Origin: Candidatus Krumholzibacteriota bacterium
GTDB taxonomy: Bacteria > Krumholzibacteriota > Krumholzibacteriia > LZORAL124-64-63
Assembly (NCBI GenBank): GCA_039714075.1
Contig: JBDLKA010000017.1
Span: forward strand, 1-50,907
Reading direction: 5' to 3'
DNA length: 50,907 bases
The notes below the pieces were generated by a model. That model was not told the DNA's origin. It worked only from the letters and a program-made list of their open reading frames with translations, and made no database searches. The translations under genes were made by a program, and so were the position numbers. Shown here piece after piece: positions 1,540 to 37,414 of the stretch (position 1 is the first letter of the stretch; each line of letters opens with the position of its first letter).

Positions 1540-4179
1540 ATGACGACCCCCCGCTCGTTCGCGCACTACAACGTGACCGAAAAGATCGGCGCCGGCGGCA
1601 TGGGTGAGGTTTTCCGCGCCACCGACAGCAAGCTGAACCGCGACGTAGCGCTGAAGATGCTGCCCGATACGGTCGCCCAGGACCCCGAACGGCTGGCCCG
1701 CTTCCGCCGCGAGGCCCAGGTGCTGGCGGCGCTGAACCATCACGGGATCGCGGGGATTTACGGGCTGGAATCCGAGGGTGAGAGGCACGCGCTGGCGATG
1801 GAACTGGTCACGGGGCCGGATCTTTCCGAACGGTTGGCCGCCGGGCCTTTATCCGTTGAAGAGGGAATGCGCGTGGCGCTGGAACTGGCCGAAGCCATCG
1901 AAGCCGCGCACGAGAAGGGCATCGTCCACCGCGATCTGAAACCGGCCAACATCAAGATCAACGACCAGGGCCACGTGAAGGTTCTGGACTTCGGGCTGGC
2001 CAAGGCGCTGGCGGACGATCCGGCCGGCGGCAGCTCCATCGACCCCGCCATGTCCCCCACGTTGACGGCGAACATGACCATGGGCAACGTCATTCTGGGC
2101 ACCGCGGCGTACATGAGCCCCGAACAGGCGCGCGGCACCGAGGTGGACAAGCGGGCCGACATCTGGGCCTTCGGGGTGGTCGTGGTCGAGATGCTTGGCG
2201 GGCGCAAACTGTTCGCGGGTGAAACGGTGAGCGACACACTGGCTTCAGTGCTGCAGGCGCAGATAGATCTGGATGATCTGCCGGACAACCTGCCCCGCCC
2301 GGTCAAACAACTGCTCCGCCGCTGCCTGCAGCGGGACCCGAAGCAGCGTCTGCGCGATATCGGCGACGCGCGCATCATCCTGCAGGATGTGATCTCCGGG
2401 GAAATCGAAGAGGCCCCGGAAACCGCCTCCAAGGGCAGCTCCCGGGTACATTGGGCTTTGACCTGCGCCCTGGTCGTCGCCGTTGCCGCCGCGGTCTTCG
2501 GTTTCATGCGCCCCAGCGACCATCAACCGCTGCCCCTGCGCAAATTCAGCATCCCGATGGATTCCAAGGACCCCTCGACCAATGTCGCCTTCGCGCCGCA
2601 AATCTCTCCTAATGGTCAGTACCTGGTCTACCTCAGCGAGGAGCAGATCTGGGTCCGCGACCTGGCCTCCATGGTTTCACGCCCCTTGTCCGGGACCGAG
2701 GGGGCGCACTATCCCTTCTGGTCGCCCGACAGCGAGTGGATCGGTTTTTCCACCAGCTCCGAGTTGAAGAAGATCGACCGCAGCGGCGGCCAGTCCACCA
2801 TCCTGGCCAAGATGAGCGGTAGCCAGACCATGAGCAGCGCATCTTCCGCCACCTGGAACCCCGACGGCTCCATCTACTACACAACCGGCAACACCGGTAT
2901 GTTGAAGTCGTCGTCCCAGGCCGGCGAGGTGACCATGCACCACGCGCAGCAGGAAGGTGAAATCGATTTCCACGAGGTATGTGCGCTACCCGCCGGCCGC
3001 GGCTGGGTTTTCGTGGTTCACACCAAGAAAGACTACGGATCGCTGAGCGTGTTGACCCCCGACGGCAAGGCCAAACAGGTTGTCGCCTACCCCGGGGATT
3101 CGATCAACAATCCGGTGTGGTCTCCGTCGGGCCATATCCTTTTCGAAAGGAACCAGGTCGCCGACGGCATCTGGGCCATTCCCTTCTCCCTGGACAAACT
3201 GGAAGTAAGCGGCGAGCCCTTCCTGGTCGCCGCAGGCGGGAGCAGCCCCACGGTTTCGGTGGATGGGACCCTGGTCTACACCGCCGGAGTCCATCAATTT
3301 CAGGTCCAGCTGGCCTGGTACGATCGGCAGGGAAACTTCATCGAGTCCATCGCCGATGTGTCCACCAGTCGGCCGTTCCCCACCCTGTCCCCGGACGATA
3401 CCCAAATCCTGCTGTCATGTACCACCGACGACGGGCGGGAAATCTGGCTGTTCGATACCACCAACCGCAACGAGCGCCGGGTGACCTTTGACGGCCTCCG
3501 CTGGGGAGAAGCGTCCTGGCATCCCGACGGAAAACGGATTATTTCCAATGTCGATTCCGACTTCAAGGCCTTCCTCTTTACGCTGGACGGCTCCGAACCC
3601 CGCCGCGACCTGGGCCTGGGAGCCCTGTTGCGCTTCTCCCGGGACGGAGAAACTATTTTTTATTCCAAGCCCATGATGGATGGCGGCTTCAACTTCGACA
3701 TCTACTCACGCCCGTTGGACGCTCCGGAAGAAGAAGGTCGCAAACTTGTGGCTTCGCCCGCTATCGAATGGCTGCCGCTCCCATCTCCGGATGGTCGACA
3801 TCTGCTCTACGTCTCGGAGGAATCAGGCGACCAGGAAATCTACGCCACCACCTACCCCGACCTGACGGGCAGATGGCAGGTATCGCGCGGCGGAGGCGGT
3901 TGGGCGCAGTGGCGGGCCGACGGCAAGGAAATCTACTACACCACGCATAAGGAGATGTTCGTGGTGTCGGTGGATGACGAGAACGGGTTCATGCTGGGGC
4001 GGCCGCGGAAGTTGTTTGACCGGCCGAGCACGGATTGGTCCGCGAGCTGGCCGGATGGGTTCGATGTCACCGCCGGTGGGGAAAGGTTTGTGATGCTAAG
4101 GCCAGCGCCGACGGAAGAGCACGTGCAGCCCATGTTGATGGTGGTGCAGAACTGGTTTCGGGAGTTTGGGGGGGAGTAG
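1540..4179 (+). CDS. Hanks-type Ser/Thr protein kinase with TM helix and TolB/PD40-like beta-propeller
   Basis: GAGGMGEV, VALK, HRDLKPAN, DFGLAK and GTAAYMSPEQ motifs; TM segment; repeated P-x-(W/L)SPDG units. Confidence 0.95.
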   Translation: MTTPRSFAHYNVTEKIGAGGMGEVFRATDSKLNRDVALKMLPDTVAQDPERLARFRREAQVLAALNHHGIAGIYGLESEGERHALAMELVTGPDLSERLAAGPLSVEEGMRVALELAEAIEAAHEKGIVHRDLKPANIKINDQGHVKVLDFGLAKALADDPAGGSSIDPAMSPTLTANMTMGNVILGTAAYMSPEQARGTEVDKRADIWAFGVVVVEMLGGRKLFAGETVSDTLASVLQAQIDLDDLPDNLPRPVKQLLRRCLQRDPKQRLRDIGDARIILQDVISGEIEEAPETASKGSSRVHWALTCALVVAVAAAVFGFMRPSDHQPLPLRKFSIPMDSKDPSTNVAFAPQISPNGQYLVYLSEEQIWVRDLASMVSRPLSGTEGAHYPFWSPDSEWIGFSTSSELKKIDRSGGQSTILAKMSGSQTMSSASSATWNPDGSIYYTTGNTGMLKSSSQAGEVTMHHAQQEGEIDFHEVCALPAGRGWVFVVHTKKDYGSLSVLTPDGKAKQVVAYPGDSINNPVWSPSGHILFERNQVADGIWAIPFSLDKLEVSGEPFLVAAGGSSPTVSVDGTLVYTAGVHQFQVQLAWYDRQGNFIESIADVSTSRPFPTLSPDDTQILLSCTTDDGREIWLFDTTNRNERRVTFDGLRWGEASWHPDGKRIISNVDSDFKAFLFTLDGSEPRRDLGLGALLRFSRDGETIFYSKPMMDGGFNFDIYSRPLDAPEEEGRKLVASPAIEWLPLPSPDGRHLLYVSEESGDQEIYATTYPDLTGRWQVSRGGGGWAQWRADGKEIYYTTHKEMFVVSVDDENGFMLGRPRKLFDRPSTDWSASWPDGFDVTAGGERFVMLRPAPTEEHVQPMLMVVQNWFREFGGE

Positions 4180-4181
4180 AC

Positions 4182-4721
4182 CTACGCGTCGGCCCACACC
4201 TTGATTCCCCGGCGTTCCCTTTCCTGAAGGCCACATTTGCGGAGAATTTCACCCAGCAATTCAAGGTCGGGAATCGCCTTGAGGGACACATCCGGAACAT
4301 TCCGGTCGCTTGATTTCAGAACCAATTCCGAGTGGCCGACCAATCTCATTCCCAGCGGCTTGTATATTTCGTAGTCGTCGATCCGGAACAGTTCAATGTT
4401 GTTCAGCGACTTCGAAAAAATACCCTTCTCGATTTGTATCCGCTGTGACGAGATCTTGTAGTTGATCGAGATCCTGCGCAACCAGAAGAAGATCGCCGCC
4501 ACTCCCAGCGTTATGACCGACAGGGCGTACTCGCCCAGTGTGAAAATTGTCGCCGGCCGGCCACTGAAAAGCTCTCTTTCCTCCTCCTCATTGCGTTTGG
4601 AGACAAAAGCCTCGATGTCTTCACTGCAGAACCGACACTTTATCGCGGCGGCCTTGATTGGCTCCCCACATACGGGACAGGCCTTGGTTTGGGCCCTGTT
4701 TTCCACGGTTTGTTCAGTCAT
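4182..4721 (-). CDS. Zinc-ribbon plus bacterial PH-domain (bPH_2/YdbT-like) membrane protein
   Basis: CPVCGE...KCRFC, one TM helix, YKISSQRIQIEKGIFSK...ELFRI. Confidence 0.8.
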   Translation of the reverse strand: MTEQTVENRAQTKACPVCGEPIKAAAIKCRFCSEDIEAFVSKRNEEEERELFSGRPATIFTLGEYALSVITLGVAAIFFWLRRISINYKISSQRIQIEKGIFSKSLNNIELFRIDDYEIYKPLGMRLVGHSELVLKSSDRNVPDVSLKAIPDLELLGEILRKCGLQERERRGIKVWADA

Positions 4722-28644: not shown

Positions 28645-30297
28645 ATGCAGCTGATCGACCAGCACACCAAGGCCATCATGGAGGGATGCAAGGAGCGCGC
28701 CCGCGACGCCGGGTTGCGTTTCGACGACGAATCCCTCGAGTACGTGGTGACCAACCGCGACCTGCTGGAGCTGTCGCCCAAGATCATGATCCCCACCATG
28801 TACGACTACTGGGTGCACGACGTCGAGGTGCTGCAGGGCAAGGGCCGGTACGAACTGTACCCCAGCAACCCCTTCGAGACGGTGATCAACACGCGGCCGG
28901 CGATCAGCTTCTACAACGACAACAATCCCGACTGGCTGAACGTGATGATCTTCTATCACGTTTTGGGTCACATCGACTTCTTCCAGAACAACCTGTTCTA
29001 CAAACACACCTGGGACGACGACTTCGCCGGCCTGGCCCTGGCCGACAAGCGCGCCATCGCCAAGCTGCGCAGCGAAAAGGGCCGCTGGGTCGACTACGTC
29101 ATCGAGTTCGCGCGCTCCATCGACAACATGGTGGATTTCCACGGGGTTCTCGCGGACCAGCACCGTCCCGACACGGACGGCCGTTCGCGAAAACTGGACT
29201 ACTACTTCGACGTGTTCCTGCAGGACGAAAAAAAGGTGCGCGTGAACGAATACGTGAAGGAGATCGAGCGCTACAACAAGGTCGTCAAGAAGCACGGCGC
29301 CGAGGGCGAGGACGAGTTCTTCAAGCGGGTCCACCGGTTGCATCCCGAATTCGAGGCGATGTTCGAGAAGGCCAATGGTTTCGACCGCGAGAACCGGCGT
29401 GACCTGCTGTTGTTCCTGCTGGACCACTCCGAGTTCCTGAACCGCGAGGAAAACCGCTGGATGAAGACCGTCCTGCAGATCGTCCGCAAGACCTCGCTGT
29501 ACTTCCAGCCCCAGATCCGCACCAAGATCATGAACGAGGGCTGGGCCAGCTACTGGCACGAAACGCTGTTCATGCGCGACGACCGCATCGCCGGCCACGA
29601 GGTGGATTTCGCCCGGGTCAACGCCCATGTCACCTCCATGCCGCGGGTCGGCCTGAATCCCTACGCCCTGGGCATGCGGCTGTTCTACTTCATCGAGGAA
29701 GCGGCCGACAAGGGGCGCTACAGCCAGGAGTTCCTGGCCCTGCTCGACGCCGACCAGAGGCGCAAATTCGATAAGGGAACCGGCACCGGACAGGACTACA
29801 TCTTCCAGGTGCGCGAAAACATGAACGACTTCCTGTTCGTCAACACCTTCATCGAGCAGGACTTCGTCACCCGCAACAAGCTGTTCGTCGCCGACAAGGT
29901 GCTCGACGAGCAGCGCATGGTCTGGCAGTGGTACGTCAAGAGCCGCAACGCCGGCGAATACAAGGAGATGGTCAAGGAGTCGCTGTACCATCCGCCGCAC
30001 ATCACCATCGACCTCGAAAACACGAGCGAGGACAACCTCCGGCTCAACCACACGTTCGAGGACAAGCCGCTGGTCCGGGAGTTCATCAACAACACCATGC
30101 TCGGCCTGGAATTCCTGTGGGGCGGCAAGGTGACCCTGGAGACCACCGAGGTCAAATCGATCAAGAAGCCCGACCAGCAGCCCACCCTGCCGGGCATGGG
30201 CACGCCGGTCGATGAAGAGGAAACCCGGGCCAAGGTCGAGTGGCAGAGGGTCCGCTACACAATGAAGGACCGCAAAATAAGCAAGGGACTGGTCTAG
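28645..30297 (+). CDS. spoVR: SpoVR/YcgB family protein
   Basis: FETVIN, HVLGHIDFF, YFQPQIRTKIMNEGWASYWH, LNPYALG. Confidence 0.95.
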   Translation: MQLIDQHTKAIMEGCKERARDAGLRFDDESLEYVVTNRDLLELSPKIMIPTMYDYWVHDVEVLQGKGRYELYPSNPFETVINTRPAISFYNDNNPDWLNVMIFYHVLGHIDFFQNNLFYKHTWDDDFAGLALADKRAIAKLRSEKGRWVDYVIEFARSIDNMVDFHGVLADQHRPDTDGRSRKLDYYFDVFLQDEKKVRVNEYVKEIERYNKVVKKHGAEGEDEFFKRVHRLHPEFEAMFEKANGFDRENRRDLLLFLLDHSEFLNREENRWMKTVLQIVRKTSLYFQPQIRTKIMNEGWASYWHETLFMRDDRIAGHEVDFARVNAHVTSMPRVGLNPYALGMRLFYFIEEAADKGRYSQEFLALLDADQRRKFDKGTGTGQDYIFQVRENMNDFLFVNTFIEQDFVTRNKLFVADKVLDEQRMVWQWYVKSRNAGEYKEMVKESLYHPPHITIDLENTSEDNLRLNHTFEDKPLVREFINNTMLGLEFLWGGKVTLETTEVKSIKKPDQQPTLPGMGTPVDEEETRAKVEWQRVRYTMKDRKISKGLV

Positions 30298-30299
30298 GC

Positions 30300-32585
30300 A
30301 TGGAACACATCCGTAGCGCCATGCAGAACCTCGAAGAGAGCCAGCGCGGGCTGGACCGGGCGCAGACCGTCAATTTCGAGCAGTTCCTGATCGTATTGCG
30401 GGCGCGTCCGGAAACCCTGATCCGCAACGTCCACCAGGTGTTCCACGACATGGTGCAGGCCTCAGTGGGCAACGGGCAGGACGAGTATCCCGAGGATCCC
30501 GAATCGATCAACTTCGTGGCCTACGACACCAAGGAGCTGTTCGAGACCGGCACCGACAACCCGTTCTTCGCCGACCGCATCTTCGCCAACCGGCTGATGG
30601 GCATGATCGACGGTTTCCGCGGCGGCACCCAGCAGAACAAGATCTACATCTTCGACGGACCGCCGGGCTGCGGCAAATCCATCTTCCTGAACAACCTGCT
30701 GCGCAAGTTCCAGGAATACGCCAACAGCGAGGACGGCTGCCGGTACGAAACCGTCTGGCACCTGGACCGCTCGGTGCTGGGTGAATTCTCGGACCTGGAC
30801 GGCCAGCCCGTCATGGACAAGCTGGTCCAGCTGCTGGATGTTTCGGGCCGCGCGCTGTCCGAAGCCGGCGATGCGGTCCAGCCGCGGATGCGCCCCGGAT
30901 TCGTGGAAGTGCCCTGCCCCAGCCACGACAACCCGTTGCTGATGATCCCCAAGGAGCAGCGTTCCGAATTCCTGGACCACCTCTTCGCCAACGACGAGTT
31001 CAAATGGAACCTGTCCTACGGCAAGGAATACGACTGGGTGTTCAAGGACAACCCCTGCACCATCTGCACGACCCTGTATCAGGCCCTGCTGCACAAGCTG
31101 GGCGACCCGACCGAGGTCTTCAAGATGCTGCACGCCCGGCCCTACGTGATCAACCGGCGGCTGGGCGAAGGCGCCTCGGTGTTCAACCCCGGCGACCGCA
31201 GTTCGCGCCTGCAGGTTCTGACCAATCCCGAAATCCAGAAGCGCATCAGCTCCCTGTTGCAGGACAGCAACGCCGTTCGCTACGTCTTCTCGCGCTACGC
31301 CCGCACCAACAACGGGATCTACGCGCTGATGGACATCAAGGGACACAACAAGGAACGGCTGATGGAGCTGCACAACATCATCAGCGACGGCGTGCACAAG
31401 GTCGAGGAGATCGAGGAAAACGTGAACTCGCTGTTCCTGGGCGTGATGAACCCCGAGGACAACAAGAACATCCGCGGGTTCCAGTCGCTGACCGACCGCA
31501 TCGAGTTCATCAACATTTCCTACGTGCTGGACTCGGCGACCGAAGTGAAGATCTACGAGAACACCTTCGGCCGGCACATCGGCGAGAGTTTCCTGCCGCG
31601 CGTGATGGAGAACTTCGCCCGGGTCATCATCTCCAGCCGCATGAACGAGAAGTCGCCGGCCCTGCTCGACTGGATCGGCGACCCCAAGAAATACAAGATG
31701 TACTGCGACGAGAACCTGCATCTCTTGAAGATGGCCATCTTCACCGGGTTGATCCCCGCCTGGCTGGACGAAGAGGATCGCAAGAACTTCACCGCCAAGC
31801 GAAGGCGAATGATCATCGCCGAGGCCGAAACCGAGGGCAACAAGGGGTTCAGCGGACGCGACTCCATCGATATCTTCCAGGACCTCTACTCGACCTACGC
31901 CAACGAAGACCAGATGATCACCATGGACACCTTGTGCCGGTTCTTCACCAAGGCCCGGCCCGAGCTGAACAAGCAGCTGCCCAACGGATTCCTGGATTCG
32001 CTGCGCCGCATGTACAACTTCCAGATCCTGCAGGAAGTGAAGGAATCGCTCTACTACTACAACGAGGAACAGATCGCCCGCGACATCAAGAACTACCTGT
32101 TCGCCCTGAACTACGAACTGGGCACCACCGCGGTGTGCACCTACACCGGCGAACGCCTGGAAATCACCGAGACCTTCCTGGTGGGTATCGAGGACCACCT
32201 GCTCGGCCCGGATGTCCGCGAAGGCCGCCGCACCGAATTCCGCGAGGACACCCAGCGCGAATACACGTCCCAGGCCCTGACCCAGGAAATCATGGTCGAA
32301 GGCCTGGACATCGAAGACACCGAACTGTTCGCCGAGATGCACAAGCGTTACGTCTTCAACCTGAAGGACGAAGTACTCGAGCCCTTCCTGAAGAACGCCA
32401 ACTTCCGCCGCGGCCTCAAAGACTACGGCACCGACGAGTTCCGGACCTACGACAAGAAGATCCGCGACGATATCGCATATCTGCTGGGCAACCTTGTCGA
32501 TCGGTACGGCTATAATGAACAAGCCGCTCGTGAGGTCTGCATCTATGTGGTGGACAATGAGCTGGCGGAGGAGTTTGAAGAGTAG
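30300..32585 (+). CDS. prkA: PrkA/YeaG-family AAA+ protein, copy 2
   Basis: Walker A GPPGCGKS, PCPSHDNPL, DRIE, GFSGRD; C-terminus GYNEQAAREVC. Confidence 0.88.
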   Translation: MEHIRSAMQNLEESQRGLDRAQTVNFEQFLIVLRARPETLIRNVHQVFHDMVQASVGNGQDEYPEDPESINFVAYDTKELFETGTDNPFFADRIFANRLMGMIDGFRGGTQQNKIYIFDGPPGCGKSIFLNNLLRKFQEYANSEDGCRYETVWHLDRSVLGEFSDLDGQPVMDKLVQLLDVSGRALSEAGDAVQPRMRPGFVEVPCPSHDNPLLMIPKEQRSEFLDHLFANDEFKWNLSYGKEYDWVFKDNPCTICTTLYQALLHKLGDPTEVFKMLHARPYVINRRLGEGASVFNPGDRSSRLQVLTNPEIQKRISSLLQDSNAVRYVFSRYARTNNGIYALMDIKGHNKERLMELHNIISDGVHKVEEIEENVNSLFLGVMNPEDNKNIRGFQSLTDRIEFINISYVLDSATEVKIYENTFGRHIGESFLPRVMENFARVIISSRMNEKSPALLDWIGDPKKYKMYCDENLHLLKMAIFTGLIPAWLDEEDRKNFTAKRRRMIIAEAETEGNKGFSGRDSIDIFQDLYSTYANEDQMITMDTLCRFFTKARPELNKQLPNGFLDSLRRMYNFQILQEVKESLYYYNEEQIARDIKNYLFALNYELGTTAVCTYTGERLEITETFLVGIEDHLLGPDVREGRRTEFREDTQREYTSQALTQEIMVEGLDIEDTELFAEMHKRYVFNLKDEVLEPFLKNANFRRGLKDYGTDEFRTYDKKIRDDIAYLLGNLVDRYGYNEQAAREVCIYVVDNELAEEFEE

Positions 32586-32675
32586 AAGCCCTGTGGGGGG
32601 TTGATTCAGGATGTCCTCGTCGCTTCGCTCCTGCGGATTACCTGAATCAACCCCCCACAGGGCTTCTACTCTTCA
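32576..32675. repeat. Long hairpin element 1: perfect 35-bp inverted arms around a 30-nt conserved core
   Basis: Arm TGAAGAGTAGAAGCCCTGTGGGGGGTTGATTCAGG (32576-32610) is exactly complemented by 32641-32675; the left arm contains the prkA stop codon. Confidence 0.95.
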
Positions 32676-32731
32676 CGCCCCCTGCCAGATCATTTACCAG
32701 ACTTAAACCAGACCCCTAACCACAAGATAAT

Positions 32732-33202
32732 TTAGCGGTACAAGGCCTTGATTGTTCCCCAGGCTTTGTATTCCACATCGACGGACCCCGATTCGACGAT
32801 GACCAGATGGGCGATGTAGTCGGCCGGATTTATTGGGGGTTCGCCGAGGATCGGAAATGGTTCGACCCACAAAAGGGTGACCCGGTAGGGGCCCATGTCG
32901 CAGGACTGGGAAAACATCGCAGCGGTGTGCAGGACACAGTTGATCTGGATCTCGCCCGGCAGGTCCCCCACGACGGCGGCCTCGGCGTCGCCCTCCCAAG
33001 CGCAGATCGCGCCCTGGGGGCAGCGGGAATCGGACAGGATGCCGGTGAAGACGAAGTACAGGGTCTCGCCGAGCACCTCGGCGGACTGGCCGGGGCCCAG
33101 GGCGAAAGGCACGCCCAGGTTTACCGGGATCGGAGCAGCGGACAGCAGGACCGGAAGGGATAGGATTGCCAGGATAAGGGTAGGCGTGATCATTCGATTC
33201 AT
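32732..33202 (-). CDS. Secreted protein with DSRCP..C.WEG motif and C-terminal WGxxKxLYR tail
   Basis: Start MNRMITP after GGGAGG; signal peptide; DSRCPQGAICAWEG; ends SVDVEYKAWGTIKALYR. Confidence 0.8.
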   Translation of the reverse strand: MNRMITPTLILAILSLPVLLSAAPIPVNLGVPFALGPGQSAEVLGETLYFVFTGILSDSRCPQGAICAWEGDAEAAVVGDLPGEIQINCVLHTAAMFSQSCDMGPYRVTLLWVEPFPILGEPPINPADYIAHLVIVESGSVDVEYKAWGTIKALYR

Positions 33203-33324
33203 GGGCGACCTCCCTTGAAGGGTTCCTGCACATGATATCACCATTTTCAAAAACATGCCCCCCGGGGGGCATATCTGATGGAAAACATTTAATTCTTGAT
33301 GGTTACGGGTTCGAATGTTCCCCG

Positions 33325-33810
33325 TTATCCGAAAATTTTCTGCCAGTACCCCACGTCGACCCAGCGGTCGAACTTCCAGCCGACCTCCTTCAGGTGCCCC
33401 ACTTTGACAAAACCCAGCTTTTCGTGGAGCGCGACACTGGCGGGGTTGGGCAGGGCGATCCCGCCCAGGGCGCTGTGATGGCCCGCGGCGTTCACGCGGT
33501 CCAGCAGATCCCCGTACAAGCGGGTGCCGACGCCCCGGCCGGCGGCCCCGGGGTCGAGATAGATGGTGGTCTCGACCGAGTACCGGTAGGCGCAGCGGGA
33601 TTTCCACTCGCTGGCCACGGCATAACCCCACACGCGCCCCTCTTCCTCCCAGACCACCCAGGGGAACTTGGCGGAGGCGGCCTCGATCAAGGCGATCATC
33701 TCGGATTCGGGAACGGGATCGGTGCCGAAGGTCACCGCTGTATGGGCGACATAATGGTTGTAGATTCTGCAGATCGCTTCCACGTCTTGGGGCCTGGGTT
33801 CGCGGATCAT
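33325..33810 (-). CDS. GNAT N-acetyltransferase (YncA/Pat-like)
   Basis: IYNHYV...[41 protein letters not shown]; overlaps the galE stop. Confidence 0.92.
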
Positions 33811-34826
33811 TCCCGGAATCCCCGCGGGTTTTCCGACTGCCACTTCCAGTGGTCGGCGCACATTTCTTCGATGCCGCGCCCGGCCTGCCAGCCCAACAGG
33901 GACGCGGCCAGGGACGGGTCCGCGTAGCAGGTGGCGATATCGCCGGGCCGGCGCGGGGTGACCCGGTAGGCAATACTCCGGCCCGAGGCTTTTTCCGCGG
34001 CCGCCACCATTTCCAGGACGGAATAACCCCTTCCGGTGCCCAGGTTGATGGGAACACATCCGTCGAAGGCGTTCATTTTGCCGATGGCCGCAACGTGGCC
34101 CAGCGCCAGGTCCACCACGTGGATGTAGTCGCGCACCCCGGTGCCGTCGGGCGTGTCGTAGTCGTCGCCGAAAACACCCAGTTCATCCCGCATGCCCACG
34201 GCCACCTGCATGACGAACGGCATCAGGTTGTTGGGAATGTCCTGGGGATCTTCGCCGATGCGCCCGCTCGAATGCGCGCCGATGGGGTTGAAATACCGCA
34301 GCAACACGCACCGCCAGCGGTCGTCCGCCGTGCACACGTCGCGCATGATCTCCTCGATGAAAAGCTTGGTCCGGCCATAGGGGTTGGTCGTCGTCAGCGG
34401 AAAATCCTCGGTGATCGGCACGGTGGCCGGATCGCCGTACACCGTGGCCGAGGAACTGAACACCAGGTTGAAGCACTCGTGCTCCTGCATCACCTTCAGC
34501 AGCTCCACGGTGCCGAAAATGTTGTTTTCGTAATAGCGCAGGGGAATTTCACAACTCTCGCCGACGGCCTTGAGCCCGGCGAAGTGGATCACCGCGTCGA
34601 ACCGGTGGGCGTCAAAGACTTCCAACAGCGCCGCACGGTCACAAATATCGACCTGATGGAATTCTAGGTCCCGGCCGGTCAATTCCCGGACCCGGCGCAG
34701 GCTTTCCTCGCTGGAATTGTCCAGATTATCCACGACCACGACCTCGAAACCGGTGTTCAGCAGTTCGAGGCAGGTGTGGCTGCCGATGTAGCCGGCCCCG
34801 CCGGTCACCAGGATCTTTTGCGACAT
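33807..34826 (-). CDS. galE: UDP-glucose 4-epimerase
   Basis: [50 protein letters not shown]. Confidence 0.97.
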
Positions 34827-34921
34827 GGACGATCTCCCCGGGTTTGATTGTTCGCCTGATTCATAACCGCACGCCGTTCTTTTCGCAACTACTTCGAAAC
34901 CGGCATGTGACGTTGCGCGGA

Positions 34922-35046
34922 CCTGAGACCTTGGCAAAGAAACAGTCCTCCTCATGAAGGAAAAATCCGGGCAATCCGCAGCGAAGTGAGGACCGTCCCG
35001 GATTTTTTCTTCATGAGGAGGACTGTTTCTTTACCAAGGCCTCAGG
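34922..35046. repeat. Long hairpin element 2: 50-bp inverted arms (3 mismatches) around a 25-nt conserved core
   Basis: Arms at 34922-34971 and 34997-35046; the right arm contains the maeB stop codon; the ORF track shows MRRTVSLPR on both strands as a consequence. Confidence 0.95.
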
Positions 35047-37294
35047 CCCGCCCAACCTCATACGCCGAAAGCGCCGCCATGTTGACGATCTCCGCCACCG
35101 AGGACTGGGTCGACACCACGTTGATGGGCTGCTTGAGCCCGACCAGCAGCGGTCCGATCACTTCCCGCTCGCCCAGGTAGCCCACCAGTTTGTAGGCGAT
35201 GTTCCCGCTCTGCATGTCCGGGAAAACCAGCACGTTGGCCTGCCCCATGACCTTGCAGTCGGGCACCGACTGTTCGCATTCGCCCGGCAGGACGGCCACG
35301 TCGGCGTGCATCTCGCCGTCGACGACCAGTTCGGGATGTTCCTGATTGAGGATGCGCACCGCTTCGCGGACCTTGCGGCTCTCGGGCCGGTCGTTGTCCC
35401 CGAAGTTCGAGAACGAAAGCATCCCCACCACCGGCTCCAGGTTGAAGTGGCGCGCCACCGAGGCGGCCATCAGCGCGATCTCCGCCAGCAGGCGGCTGTC
35501 CGGATTGAAGTTCACCGTCGTGTCGGCGAAGATGTAGACCTTGTCCTCCACCAGCAGCACGTGCATGCCCACCACGCGGCTGACGCCCTGCCGCATTTCG
35601 GCCAGCGTCAGTACCCAGCGCAGCGTATCGACGTAGGAACGGTTGGCTCCGCAGACCATGCCCTCGGCCTCGCCCGAGCGCAGCATCATCACCCCGTGAT
35701 GGATGGGACGCTGCACCATGCGCCAGGCCTTCCGGTAATTGTAGCCCTTGCGCGCCCGCTCCTGGAACAGCATCTGCGCCATGGACTCGAGGTTGGGACA
35801 ACTGGCTGGGTTCTTGAGGGTCACACCCTTCAGGTTGAAGCCGATCTCTTCGGCCTTGGCCCGGATGATCTCCTCGTCGCCCAGCAGGACGGGCCGGCAA
35901 TAGCCTTCGTCCGTGGCGATGCGGCAGGCCTCCAGCACGCGGTCGTTCTCCCCTTCGGCGAAAACGATCTTCCGCGGCTGCGCCTTGGCCTTGGAGCGGA
36001 TGGTGTGCATGACCATCAGGCTCTTGTTGTGCATCCCCTCCAGGGTTTGGCGGTAGGCGTCCCAATCGGTGATGGGATCGCCGGCCACCCCGGTATCACA
36101 ACCGGCTTTCGCCACCGCCGCGGCCACGATGCCCAGCACCCGGCTGTCGAACGGCTTGGGAATGATGTACTCGGGCCCGAACTCGAACAGCTCGCCGCCG
36201 TAGGCCGCCGCCACCTCGGCGGTCACCGGCTGCCGGGCCAGTTCGGCCAGGGCGTGCGCGGCCGCGATCTTCATCTCCTCGTTGATGGCGGTGGCCTTGA
36301 TGTCCAGGGCGCCGCGGAAAATGAAGGGGAACCCCAGCACGTTGTTGACCTGGTTGGGGTAATCACTGCGGCCGGTGGCCATGATCACGTCCGCGCGGGC
36401 GTCGAGCGCGTCTTCGTAGGTGATCTCGGGATCGGGATTGGCCATGGCGAACACGATGGGCTTGTCGGCCATCGACCGGACCATGTCCTTGTTCACCAGG
36501 CCCGCCACCGAACACCCCAGGAACAGATCCGCACCTTCCATGGCGTCGGCCAAGGTCCGCTTGTCGGTCTCGTTGGCGAAATACTCCTTGTACTCGTTCA
36601 TGCCCTTGGTGCGCCCCTTGTAACAGACGCCCTTGCTGTCGGCGAGCAGGAAGTTACCCCGCGGCACGCCCATGGACTCGATGAGTTTGGCGCAGGCGAT
36701 GGCCGCGGCGCCCGCCCCCGACACCACAACCTTCATCTTCGTGATGTCCTTGCCCTGCAACTGGGCCGCGTTGATCAACCCGGCCGCCGCGATGATGGCC
36801 GTCCCATGCTGGTCGTCGTGGAACACGGGGATGTTCATGGTCTCGCGCAGTTTCTTTTCCACGACGAAACATTCGGGTGCCTTGATGTCCTCGAGGTTGA
36901 TGCCGCCCACGGTGGGTTCGAGCAGCTGGCAGAACTTGACGATCTCGTCGGGATCATCGGTATCGATCTCGATGTCGAACACGTCCACATGGCCGAACTT
37001 CTTGAACAGGACGCCCTTGCCCTCCATGACGGGCTTGCCCGCCAGGGCGCCGATGTTGCCCAGCCCCAGGACGGCGCTGCCGTTGGAAACCACCGCCACC
37101 AGGTTGCCCTTGTTGGTGTAGTTGTAGGCGTCGGCGGGATTCGCCTCGATGGCCTTGCACGGAATGGCCACGCCCGGGGAATAGGCAAGCGACAGATCAC
37201 GCGCCGTAATACAAGGTTTGGTCGGCACCACTTCGGTCTTGCCGGGTCTTCCCTGGCGGTGGTAATCCAGTGCGTCCTGATCCCTGAAAGCCAT
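35042..37294 (-). CDS. maeB: NADP-dependent malic enzyme with phosphotransacetylase-like domain
   Basis: LSLAYSPGVA, KPVMEGK, NLEDI, FHDDQHGTA, GAGAAA, GRSDYPNQVNNVLGFP; C-terminal PTA-like domain. Confidence 0.97.
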   Translation of the reverse strand: MAFRDQDALDYHRQGRPGKTEVVPTKPCITARDLSLAYSPGVAIPCKAIEANPADAYNYTNKGNLVAVVSNGSAVLGLGNIGALAGKPVMEGKGVLFKKFGHVDVFDIEIDTDDPDEIVKFCQLLEPTVGGINLEDIKAPECFVVEKKLRETMNIPVFHDDQHGTAIIAAAGLINAAQLQGKDITKMKVVVSGAGAAAIACAKLIESMGVPRGNFLLADSKGVCYKGRTKGMNEYKEYFANETDKRTLADAMEGADLFLGCSVAGLVNKDMVRSMADKPIVFAMANPDPEITYEDALDARADVIMATGRSDYPNQVNNVLGFPFIFRGALDIKATAINEEMKIAAAHALAELARQPVTAEVAAAYGGELFEFGPEYIIPKPFDSRVLGIVAAAVAKAGCDTGVAGDPITDWDAYRQTLEGMHNKSLMVMHTIRSKAKAQPRKIVFAEGENDRVLEACRIATDEGYCRPVLLGDEEIIRAKAEEIGFNLKGVTLKNPASCPNLESMAQMLFQERARKGYNYRKAWRMVQRPIHHGVMMLRSGEAEGMVCGANRSYVDTLRWVLTLAEMRQGVSRVVGMHVLLVEDKVYIFADTTVNFNPDSRLLAEIALMAASVARHFNLEPVVGMLSFSNFGDNDRPESRKVREAVRILNQEHPELVVDGEMHADVAVLPGECEQSVPDCKVMGQANVLVFPDMQSGNIAYKLVGYLGEREVIGPLLVGLKQPINVVSTQSSVAEIVNMAALSAYEVGRA

Positions 37295-37414
37295 GATATC
37301 GATCCTTTCAATTGATCCCGATTCGGAATATCCTCCACCCGTCAAAGGTCGAACAGTCGACCGTGATTGTCCAGTGGACATAAGTGCGAAACTCCATCAT
37401 TCCGGAGGGGGATT

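Follow-up and report, generated by a model that had tools for sequence, protein, structure and literature searches.

The window analysed here is a stretch of 50,907 nt from a Candidatus Krumholzibacteriota bacterium (contig JBDLKA010000017.1, assembly GCA_039714075.1), in which a PrkA-type kinase gene and a MaeB-like gene each end inside a long hairpin, element 1 and element 2 (Table 1). Genes were called with our own ORF and codon-score scripts and not with a gene finder. The core of element 1, which reads TAATCCGCAGGAGCGAAGCGACGAGGACAT on the minus strand, is the centre of a palindrome with perfect arms, and the PrkA-like TAG (32583-32585, + strand) lies inside the left arm. The core of element 2, which reads CAATCCGCAGCGAAGTGAGGACCGT on the plus strand, is the centre of a palindrome paired over ∼34919-35048 with few mismatches; its right arm holds the MaeB-like stop codon and its outermost left arm is an imperfect inverted copy of the end of that gene. 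When folded as DNA, the two elements gave z-scores of -12.6 to -15.3, and 0 of 200 shuffles folded equally well. An earlier note on this DNA had quoted both cores, which were exact on re-reading, and had taken the GAA strand to be the template strand of the gene ending there, as the stop codons inside the arms confirm for both elements. A check for RNA runs containing the window listed none. In two DNA contig sets compared with the window, both hairpins coincide with contig breaks; two minor variants affect the mini-hairpin at the tip of element 1, and none of the joints over the window carried a flipped core.

Table 1. Genes and hairpin parts in the window; positions are those of the whole stretch
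Feature	Position	Strand	Description
PrkA-type kinase gene	30240..32585	+	3' end inside element 1; Pfam PF06798, E = 2.1e-49
Element 1, arm adjoining the PrkA-like gene	32576..32610		35 bp, perfect pairing; holds the last three codons of the gene and TAG
Element 1, apex (F1 core)	32611..32640	-	TAA / TCC / GCA / G-GA-GC-GAA-GC-GA-C / GA / GGA / CAT
Element 1, distal arm	32641..32675		inverted copy of the proximal arm, including the PrkA-like stop and last codons
Element 2, outer left arm	34919..34959		locus-specific; perfect 24-bp stretch at 34936-34959
Element 2, inner terminator-like module, left half	34960..34971		GAAAAA + TCCGGG, A-tract and GC stem
Element 2, apex	34972..34996	+	F1 core variant CAATCC...GGACCGT; minimal C-GAA-G mini-hairpin
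Element 2, inner module, right half	34997..35008		CCCGGA + TTTTTT, GC stem and T-tract
Element 2, outer right arm	35009..35048		reaches the MaeB-like TGA (35042-35044, minus) and last codons
MaeB-like gene (malic enzyme / phosphate acetyltransferase fusion)	35042..37381	-	3' end inside element 2; PF01515, PF00390, PF03949

Both hairpins belong to one family, F1, of which this genome (G000) holds 26–28 copies. A covariance model of the family (R1) recovered 26 of them and scored the apex of element 1 at 63.5 bits (E = 3.8e-13) and that of element 2 at 36.5 bits (E = 1.1e-5). The strict pattern proposed in the earlier note matched three times in the genome compared with 0 for its reversed control, and TAATCCGCAG-N(3-30)-GAGGACAT matched 23 times, again with 0 for the reversed control. 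Moreover, exact-core matches were present in all seven of the seven congeners of G000, with 11–19 in each and 0 for the reversed control. The variant apex of element 2 is retained in G001, G003, G004 and G005, and its inner module is kept in five species. The supposition that the two elements stand for a multi-copy family, whose core is strand-specific and structurally conserved, whose inverted arms differ from locus to locus and whose orientation to genes is fixed, was borne out.

From the inside outwards, an F1 element is built of a fixed apex, a module resembling a two-way terminator and an outer extension of unique sequence. The apex has the form (Y)AATCCGCAG-mini-hairpin-(Y)GAGGACA(R), and the 9 + 7 nt that lie outside the mini-hairpin do not vary between species, genera or phyla. 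In the sense complementary to the mRNA, the apex begins with a closing pair (U·U, C-G or U-A), an AA/CA loop and a UCC/GGA helix, and continues with a GCA/GA purine loop, a G-Y pair and, in most copies, a C-GNA-G mini-hairpin. The most frequent loops at the tip are C-GAA-G (36), C-GCA-G (12), C-AAA-G (7) and C-GTA-G (3), and GNRA tetraloops occur twice. The arms are long, locus-specific and near-perfect, with a median of 30 bp of perfect pairing, and the outer extension brings them to 30–46 perfect bp and often enters the stop codon and the last codons of the gene. In 50 aligned copies, 96.8% of cells were paired compared with 59.8% in shuffles (0 of 500 shuffles reached the observed value), and of 20 pairs examined, 16 vary on both strands of the helix. 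The arms and the apical helix are supported by this covariation; the UCC/GGA helix has no support of this kind because it is invariant in the 50 copies, and covariation is neutral on it. The symmetric 3 + 3-nt insertion that separates the two cores is real but not special, being part of an ordinary variation in the length of the apical helix from 0 to ∼10 bp across the family.

F1 copies are dispersed, one per gene end, and stand where housekeeping genes of unrelated kinds have their stop codons; Pfam matched 20 of the neighbouring genes, and these share no common function (rpoC, secDF, ackA, RNase E/G, NiFe hydrogenase, maeB, ispG and others). In this genome a gene on the opposite strand adjoins the 3' arm in 24 of 27 tabulated rows. 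Of 26 copies, 14 have the stop codon within the extended arm; in most copies it is no more than ∼25 nt from the edge of the arm, and at tandem sites the following gene begins 43–317 nt further on. The inner module has the order of an intrinsic bidirectional terminator, namely A-tract, GC stem (∼9 bp), apex, GC stem and T-tract. Counted from the apex, positions 10–18 of the 5' arm are 32–50% A, and positions 10–14 are 37–50% A and only 2–7% T, so that the 3' arm is T-rich there. In Bacillota copies, runs of A4-6 and T3-6 flank stems of ∼22 bp. Like an intrinsic terminator, F1 immediately follows the stop codon where a transcription unit ends, and ordinary terminators take the orthologous site in other genera, where MaeB-like genes have ordinary hairpins of ∼10–15 bp (judged by eye) at the same place, several with flanking A- or T-runs. 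Unlike in intrinsic terminators, however, the 'loop' of F1 is a conserved three-helix module of 22–46 nt, pairing runs 15–35 bp past the A/T tracts, and the complete hairpin is not followed by a T-run (a mean of 1.8–1.9 T in the next 10 nt in either direction, 95 copies).

The gene that ends at the hairpin lies opposite the strand with the conserved apex. At non-convergent sites of G000 the gene was on the opposite strand only in 12 cases and on the same strand only in two; the corresponding numbers were 45 and three for 82 copies of other Krumholzibacteriia (both, eight; unassigned, 26) and 10 and one for 25 copies of other phyla (both, five; unassigned, nine), and all of these counts overstate their statistical weight because copies within a genus, and the related copies of Bacillota, are not independent. 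The rule extends to convergent gene pairs in which each gene has its own F1 copy. Several features set the two strands apart. The pair at columns 22-35 is GC in 34, GU in 16 and anything else in 0 of the 50 aligned copies, and arm mismatches are G·T in 19 cases compared with A·C in eight, or 41 compared with eight in other phyla; the statistical weight of these wobble counts is likewise overstated by related copies. DNA energy parameters favour the GAA strand in 76 of 94 copies, and RNA energy parameters favour neither strand (48 compared with 45 copies). The tolerance of G·T, the G-Y pair and the C-GNA-G loops point to the template-sense strand as the folded one, and the earlier suggestion of a folded single strand agrees with these features, which, together with the DNA parameters, are more DNA-like than RNA-like. 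If F1 simply terminates the adjacent gene, these signals sit on the wrong strand. The integron site attC is comparable in that it lies at the 3' end of genes, keeps structure over sequence and is recognised in the folded form of its single bottom strand, the template strand of the cassette gene; however, attC has conserved boxes at the base of the stem and a variable apex, F1 has the reverse arrangement with a unique stem base, and F1 is without cassette arrays.

Between species, F1 arms at orthologous sites are 22–78% identical, with 38–45 of 45 positions paired within each species, and TAATCCGCAG and GAGGACAT are invariant at these sites while the arms differ. Arms present themselves as sequences that change at about the rate of neutral DNA and yet stay paired around a fixed apex. 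The far arms carry inverted copies of the last codons of the gene, and in the orthologues of element 1 in G001, G004 and G005 such copies take in up to ∼40 nt of the gene end. At one convergent site G001 and G005 have the core in the orientation opposite to that in G000, G002 and G004. Locus-specific core variants are conserved across species, and in one decayed copy (G003) a core mutation and arm decay occur together. Arm length is also peculiar to these hairpins: among 38 inverted repeats of G000 with perfect arms of at least 18 bp, 27 are F1, eight belong to F2, which has a second core, and three to neither; ordinary hairpins stop at 18 bp, and arms of at least 20 bp are found almost exclusively on hairpins with an F1 or F2 core. 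Ordinary hairpins of this genome share neither loop nor arm length with F1, as the earlier note had expected of terminators. Copying of the arms from elsewhere in the genome was ruled out by blastn of 32 F1/F2 arms, which found their own partners only; the sole recurring arm, C26/C29, is one locus split by assembly. The available text of three reports (PMC8794818, PMC5941160, PMC8604942) describes template switching as a process that homogenises arms, extends stems and inverts spacers. Arm turnover with kept pairing and the absorbed copies of gene ends fit homogenisation of this kind, and template-switch (quasipalindrome) mutation explains the perfect arms of F1 as well as its multi-base compensatory changes, stem extension and spacer inversion. 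It is, however, a general process, and it leaves the conservation of the apex and the restriction of long arms to core-bearing hairpins in this genome unexplained.

F1 was present in 32 of 60 genomes of one Krumholzibacteriota family and in Bacillota, Clostridia and Coriobacteriaceae MAGs. It is patchy among the genera of that family and occurs in 12 of 69 sampled genera of the phylum. Rfam 15 gave only generic long-hairpin microRNA models for the window region, all below gathering scores, and for six loci of other phyla nothing relevant, with sub-threshold matches of the same microRNA type. A full-text literature search with F1 core strings, whose scope was literature other than subscription journals, returned only primers and unrelated sequences among the matches listed. 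Plasmid and phage collections gave only partial chance matches with E of 1 or more.

We consider it unlikely that, as the earlier note proposed, F1 is a non-autonomous mobile element, in our terms of the REP/REPIN or MITE kind, the apex being the recognition hairpin of an enzyme that acts in trans on single-stranded DNA structure and the element having spread into terminator loops or gene ends. Copy number (5–25 per genome) and patchy occurrence are what such an element would show, and the same core in distant phyla, with 22 copies of interrelated arms in one Bacillota MAG, resembles a young repeat family; within the genus, however, copies are fixed at orthologous sites with conserved core variants, and their arm sequences recur nowhere else in the genome. 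REP sequences are recognised as folded single-stranded DNA with tolerance of G·T mismatches, and the C-GNA-G loops, G·T tolerance and DNA parameters of F1 are hallmarks of the same sort. Like F1, the REP, BIME and REPIN elements are short multi-copy palindromes of extragenic DNA near the ends of genes, REPIN doublets forming long hairpins, but REP stems are conserved and those of F1 are unique by blastn, and F1 is without a flanking tetranucleotide of the GTAG type. The earlier note had named an HUH/RAYT-like nuclease as one possible mobilising enzyme. This part of its interpretation was not supported: PF01797 (Y1/RAYT), with which mobilised REP/REPIN are associated, was found in only nine of 61 genomes of the family and in three of 27 F1-positive genomes common to both samples, and was absent from the F1 carriers G003, G006, G007, G008, G051, G069 and G123 and from the 22-copy Bacillota MAG. 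A link of Y1/RAYT to F1 was therefore rejected, as presence of PF01797 does not track F1; the terminal repeats of one RAYT-like gene (contig C256) are unrelated to F1. The outer arms, in MITE terms, are unique and not conserved terminal inverted repeats, and no related split element exists in G000, where a search for split halves 60–8000 bp apart with flanking complementarity found 0 pairs and hence no cargo-bearing parent. The 29 exact-pattern matches on viral contigs lie in seemingly coding contexts, with clear flanking arms in none on inspection; three identical ones among them have weak partial complementarity. At the C27 and C140 loci, rearrangements and assembly breaks stood in the way of comparing filled with empty sites, and the search there gave no clean empty site. 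Because of the fixed orthologous sites, single-copy arms, conserved variants and lack of a split version in G000, F1 elements behave as old, selected residents of gene ends and not as currently mobile DNA.

That the functional molecule is the mRNA seems to us quite improbable. A 3' UTR hairpin with AUGUCCUC...CUGCGGAUUA would then stabilise the transcript, be a site for RNase III or dock an RNA-binding protein, and the orientation rule would follow. Orientation does track the upstream gene, including convergent pairs with their own copies, and the T-runs of Bacillota copies are, in our own reading, slightly longer in the mRNA direction. Perfect duplexes of at least 30 bp are classical substrates of RNase III, and F1 arms match this length; the excess arm mismatches, however, turn into A·C in the mRNA sense. 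Similarly, the invariant A/C positions would make a strictly conserved G·U pair in that sense and lengthen the small helix to GUCC/GGAU, but the G-Y pair turns into C-G in some copies and into an A·C mismatch in 16 of 50, and the internal loops become pyrimidine-rich. The apical loops would be UUC, UGC or UAC triloops, for which we know of no special stability, and loops of the GNRA and UUCG types, which are common in RNA hairpins, hardly occur.

It is very improbable that F1 is functionless and that its palindromes are a mutational by-product of repeated template switching seeded by a hyperstable mini-hairpin in a terminator loop: such switching is a mutational mechanism documented in the available text of the reports cited above, long arms do occur almost only on core-bearing hairpins and far arms do copy the near flanks with coding sequence included, but the 9 + 7-nt sequence is invariant across phyla beside arms that change almost neutrally, core mutation and arm decay coincide in the decayed G003 copy, and the orientation bias of ∼15 to 1 needs selection because the arms let the core flip.

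Among described repeats, SPRITE is close to F1. As described in the available text of PMC3049150, it has ∼30 copies per genome, a stem far longer than that of normal terminators with flanking A/T runs, and a position near the 3' ends of coding sequences with enrichment between convergent genes; that text names no known matching transposase and proposes SPRITE as a co-opted terminator. F1 resembles this description in copy number, long stem with A/T runs, gene-end site, lack of a known transposase and the terminator idea. However, so far as that description extends, SPRITE copies share their whole sequence and F1 copies only the apex, with arms particular to each locus; F1 is further set apart by a fixed gene orientation, a strand-asymmetric structured apex, arms perfect over 30–46 bp and into coding sequence, and occurrence in several phyla. 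Resemblances of the apex to other motifs were rejected. In a kink-turn comparison (alignment A1, by inspection), the second-A position is G or C and the preceding G belongs to a covarying G-C/G-U pair; the 11-nt tetraloop receptor, the sarcin-ricin loop and 16S helix 45, as well as a DnaA box for F1 and a parS half-site for F2, matched in part by eye and were dropped as unsupported.

Our preferred reading, which we hold with roughly even confidence, is that F1 elements are terminator-like palindromic repeats that sit where genes end and carry a previously unrecognised apex module. F1 would mark the end of the transcription unit as a bidirectional terminator or insulator; we infer termination from position and architecture only. 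The arms would be kept perfect, lengthened and at times flipped by intra-palindrome template switching during replication, and a putative trans-acting factor would recognise the apex in its folded single-stranded form. The structured sense runs antisense to the adjacent gene and for that reason would have one of two polar roles: it may block transcription coming into the gene from the 3' side, or it may act as a DNA hairpin of the template strand. A bolder version, which we think quite improbable, makes the apex (AATCCGCAG...GAGGACA with C-GNA-G) the dock of an undescribed reader of template-strand hairpins, which would set a polar boundary and trigger the fold-back copying that keeps the 30–46-bp arms perfect and growing. 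F2 would be a parallel case, and both would be genome punctuation in the form of a 'self-maintaining palindrome' that spreads from phylum to phylum without a transposase.

In SPRITE and REP the conserved part is the stem, whereas in F1 the stem is particular to each locus and a small asymmetric apex is constant across genera and also found in unrelated phyla. F1 thus offers a naturally occurring case for measuring how the arms of palindromes homogenise each other, with a fixed marker inside each copy for comparison. Its apex is a compact structured motif without an Rfam entry, for which a binding partner can be sought, and the family provides a concrete test case of whether or not polar boundary elements exist at bacterial gene ends. 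If the apex does act as a DNA hairpin of the template strand, this would be an unusual mode of marking the end of a gene.

Both core sequences quoted in the earlier note are found exactly in the window DNA, and each, as had been claimed, is centred in a long palindrome; folded as DNA, these palindromes gave z values of -12.6 to -15.3, and none of 200 shuffles equalled them. Two stop codons fall within the arms, the TAG of the PrkA-type gene in the left arm of element 1 and the TGA of the MaeB-type gene in the right one of element 2, and in both hairpins alike the strand with the GAA loop (the core strand) is the template strand of the gene ending there, again in agreement with the note. Public contigs break off at both hairpins (window 32605-32646 and 34844-35003).

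Coordinates of the window hairpins, of F2 copies outside the window (contigs of G000) and of individual loci mentioned in the text
Feature	Location	Remark
Element 1, arms	window 32576-32610 + 32641-32675	35 bp each, pairing perfect
Element 2, paired span	window about 34919-35048	a few mismatches
F2 copy	C98:8237-8337	
F2 copies	C115:548-636, 2174-2254, 2327-2417	
F2 copies	C129:1245-1335, 1389-1472	
F2 copy	C37:7410-7511	
F2 copy	C84:11872-12004	
Coreless long repeat	G000:C116:4124-4276	
Dispersed repeat	G000:C140 about 4300-4545	L212 about 1200-1445
Decaying F1 copy	G003:C43 about 2875-3010	L227
Triple F1 locus	G084:C3, locus 1003-1800	L275
Triple F1 locus	G081:C1	L276

The strict core pattern proposed as the mark of a family had three matches in this genome (G000) against none for the reversed control, and with a relaxed gap ~27 copies of the family, F1, were obtained, of which one fewer are distinct loci because contigs C26 and C29 begin in opposite halves of one copy. 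Since assemblies break inside the palindromes, F1 counts in draft MAGs are probably too low. All of the ~27 copies are flanked by inverted arms whose sequences are unrelated between loci, as the note had expected, and the covariance model that it suggested, built from 50 aligned copies that each included 12 nt of both arms, recovered 26 copies in the genome at E <=0.01. The structure assigned to the alignment is an arm helix, a 3-nt/3-nt loop, a TCC/GGA helix, a GCA/GA loop and a G-Y pair with the apical helix. In this structure 96.8% of alignment cells are paired compared with 59.8% in shuffles, the observed value being reached by none of 500, and pairing fell to <=54% once the 3' partners were slid; these and other counts over copies take in orthologous or related copies, which are not independent. 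Two-sided changes were seen in 12 of 12 arm pairs and 4 of 5 apical pairs, the three pairs of the TCC/GGA helix are invariant and thus give covariation evidence neither for nor against, and the outermost core position covaries in copies from other genera (U·U, C-G, U-A or A-U). The invariant part of the apex is AATCCGCAG...GAGGACA. Among known systems, SPRITE and bidirectional intrinsic terminators are closest to F1 in workings, and REP elements have their ecology in common with it; F1 failed the defining tests of REP/REPIN, MITE, attC and kink-turn, and those of all Rfam families likewise, several motif comparisons being by eye.

Exact-core matches numbered 23 in this genome, 11-19 in each of 7 other genomes of the genus and 1-4 in three other genera, while the reversed core had none in any of 41 genomes. 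At E <=1e-6 the model matched 33 of 151 genomes sampled from the phylum. All belong to one family, in which 32 of 60 genomes other than this one had matches, typically with 5-25 copies each; 0 of 90 genomes from other families were matched. Outside the phylum, MAGs with the same core between hairpin arms were one from Bacillota, where the model had 22 hits, a pair from Clostridia with 1-2 hits, and a pair from Coriobacteriaceae with a single hit apiece, of which one is a closed chromosome. In the public genome collection 56 of 125 exact-pattern matches had flanking arms of at least 15 bp by an ungapped measure, and the remainder look like chance occurrences with long gaps. The viral contigs, plasmids and phages searched contained nothing comparable to F1 (viral and plasmid checks by eye). 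We regard a mobile single-stranded-DNA element, served by a putative enzyme, as a rather unlikely explanation.

In core-strand coordinates the right-hand neighbour lies on the opposite strand in 24 of the 27 rows of this genome (12 convergent, 8 tandem and 4 at contig ends); two others are arranged the opposite way, and the remaining row is the duplicated contig end. This orientation rule extends further. Elsewhere in the Krumholzibacteriia, 82 copies had an opposite-strand gene end only in 45 cases, a same-strand one only in 3 and both in 8, with 26 unassigned; for 25 copies of other phyla, read from ORFs of at least 170 aa ending <=60 nt away, the corresponding numbers were 10, 1, 5 and 9. 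Gene calls came from our own ORF and codon-score scripts and are crude. The extended arm contains the stop codon in 14 of 26 copies, and recurrent (-,+) pairs 150-330 bp apart represent convergent genes with one copy each. The 22 adjacent genes scanned with Pfam are unrelated in function (2 without a match), and F1-adjacent genes include rpoC, secDF, ackA, maeB, ispG, mazG and those for RNase E/G, the NiFe hydrogenase large subunit and an ABC-F ATPase. Loci L275 and L276, from two genomes of another genus, keep an arrangement of three copies in 800 bp, following a peroxiredoxin-like gene (by eye), a 103-aa ORF and a 318-aa ORF, all conforming to the rule.

We consider an element of the 3'-UTR working in the mRNA sense unlikely. 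All strand-discriminating signals favour the core strand and point to this template-sense strand as the one predicted to fold. The apical helix is closed by G-C in 34 copies and by G-U in 16, with no other pair occurring; isolated arm mismatches were G·T in 19 and A·C in 8 cases among 87 copies, and 41 versus 8 among 22 copies of other phyla, whose arms are mutually related. C-to-T change on the non-template strand is the expected mutational bias, and it would produce the asymmetry opposite to the one observed. Moreover, internal loops are purine-rich in the core-strand sense only, and DNA folding parameters favoured the core strand in 76 of 94 copies, with RNA parameters splitting the strands 48 to 45. 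Folding of the core strand is in conflict with the orientation rule if F1 only terminates the adjacent gene. The loop type is a further signal for the core strand: apical loops in 94 distinct copies included C-GAA-G (36), C-GCA-G (12), C-AAA-G (7) and C-GTA-G (3), with two GNRA tetraloops, and C-GNA-G loops are known from Hirao and colleagues to be exceptionally stable in DNA. That F1 is a functionless by-product of a hyperstable mini-hairpin is very improbable.

Comparison of five species at the element 1 site gave arm identities of 22-78% from one species to another, yet 38-45 of 45 positions are paired within each, and all five have the same TAATCCGCAG/GAGGACAT; F1 arms evolve at about the neutral DNA rate yet keep pairing, and the apex is constant. 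Five species also share, without change, the locus-specific variant core ATCCGCAGCGAAGTGAGGACCG of element 2, which is evidence against homogenisation between loci and in favour of purifying selection acting locus by locus. Up to ~40 nt of the gene 3' end recur in inverted form on the far arm in G001, G004 and G005, and because the MaeB-like C-terminus is ancestral, copying ran from gene to far arm. At one convergent site G001 and G005 have the core in the opposite orientation to that of G000, G002 and G004. These three behaviours, namely arm homogenisation, stem extension and spacer inversion, are among the outcomes of replication template switching described in three papers (PMC8794818, PMC5941160, PMC8604942). 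The sole decaying copy seen, L227, orthologous to the copy on C27, has its core mutated to GAGAAC and many arm mismatches, and adjoins a 14-kb separation of its two flanking genes.

Among 38 inverted repeats of this genome with perfect arms of at least 18 bp and spacers <=70 nt, 27 had the F1 core, 8 a second core, F2, and 3 neither. Read on the template strand, the F2 core is GCAT-[GTGAAAC or C-GAA-G mini-hairpin]-CTAA; its perfect arms of 30-43 bp lie at gene ends, and the 5 copies scored for orientation all agree with F1. Only a few genomes of the genus have F2, the minimal core occurring in 3 of 61 family genomes, G000 included. A wider census (perfect arms of at least 12 bp, 154 repeats) bore out the remark that ordinary hairpins differ, as 122 coreless ones have arms <=18 bp and short, non-recurrent loops, the lone exception being C84, where an F2-like copy has arms of 39 bp. 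Long arms track the two cores, so template switching alone is insufficient to explain arm length: either the cores favour arm growth or the function of the element requires long arms. The C116 repeat is the sole one with arms of at least 20 bp and neither core; its perfect arms are 45 bp and its 63-nt spacer has a small GC hairpin of its own. On C140 a dispersed repeat of ~180-240 nt adjoins an F1 copy, and a query made up of this repeat plus an F1 hairpin matched G000 41 times and G001, G003, G004 and G005 18-25 times. Y1/IS200-like (RAYT-like) proteins are encoded on C247 and C256 of this genome, the latter a whole 1081-bp contig bounded on both sides by a 28-nt terminal inverted repeat that has no relation to F1 or F2.

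Judged from its sequence, the inner part of F1 looks like a two-way intrinsic terminator. In copies with arms of at least 25 bp, positions 1-3 from the apex are rich in G with some A, positions 4-6 are C/T, and positions 10-14 of the 5' arm have 37-50% A and only 2-7% T, leaving the 3' arm T-rich there. Element 2 is a clear case of this layout, GAAAAATCCGGG-apex-CCCGGATTTTTT, kept in five species whose outer arms differ, and Bacillota copies have stems of ~22 bp between A4-6 and T3-6 runs. In other genera an ordinary hairpin, roughly 10-15 bp long by eye, comes after the MaeB-like orthologue, and several of these hairpins have A- or T-runs beside them. After the full-length hairpin a T-run is absent in both directions (1.8-1.9 T per 10 nt, 95 copies). 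The likeliest reading, to which we give about an even chance, is that F1 is a palindromic repeat resembling a terminator and marking where transcription units end; template switching would maintain and lengthen the arms, and the apex, as a folded single strand, would be read in trans. The polarity of the apex may then protect the gene from transcription that comes in at its 3' side, whether from convergent genes or from divergent promoter activity, or may reflect a hairpin in the template-strand DNA.
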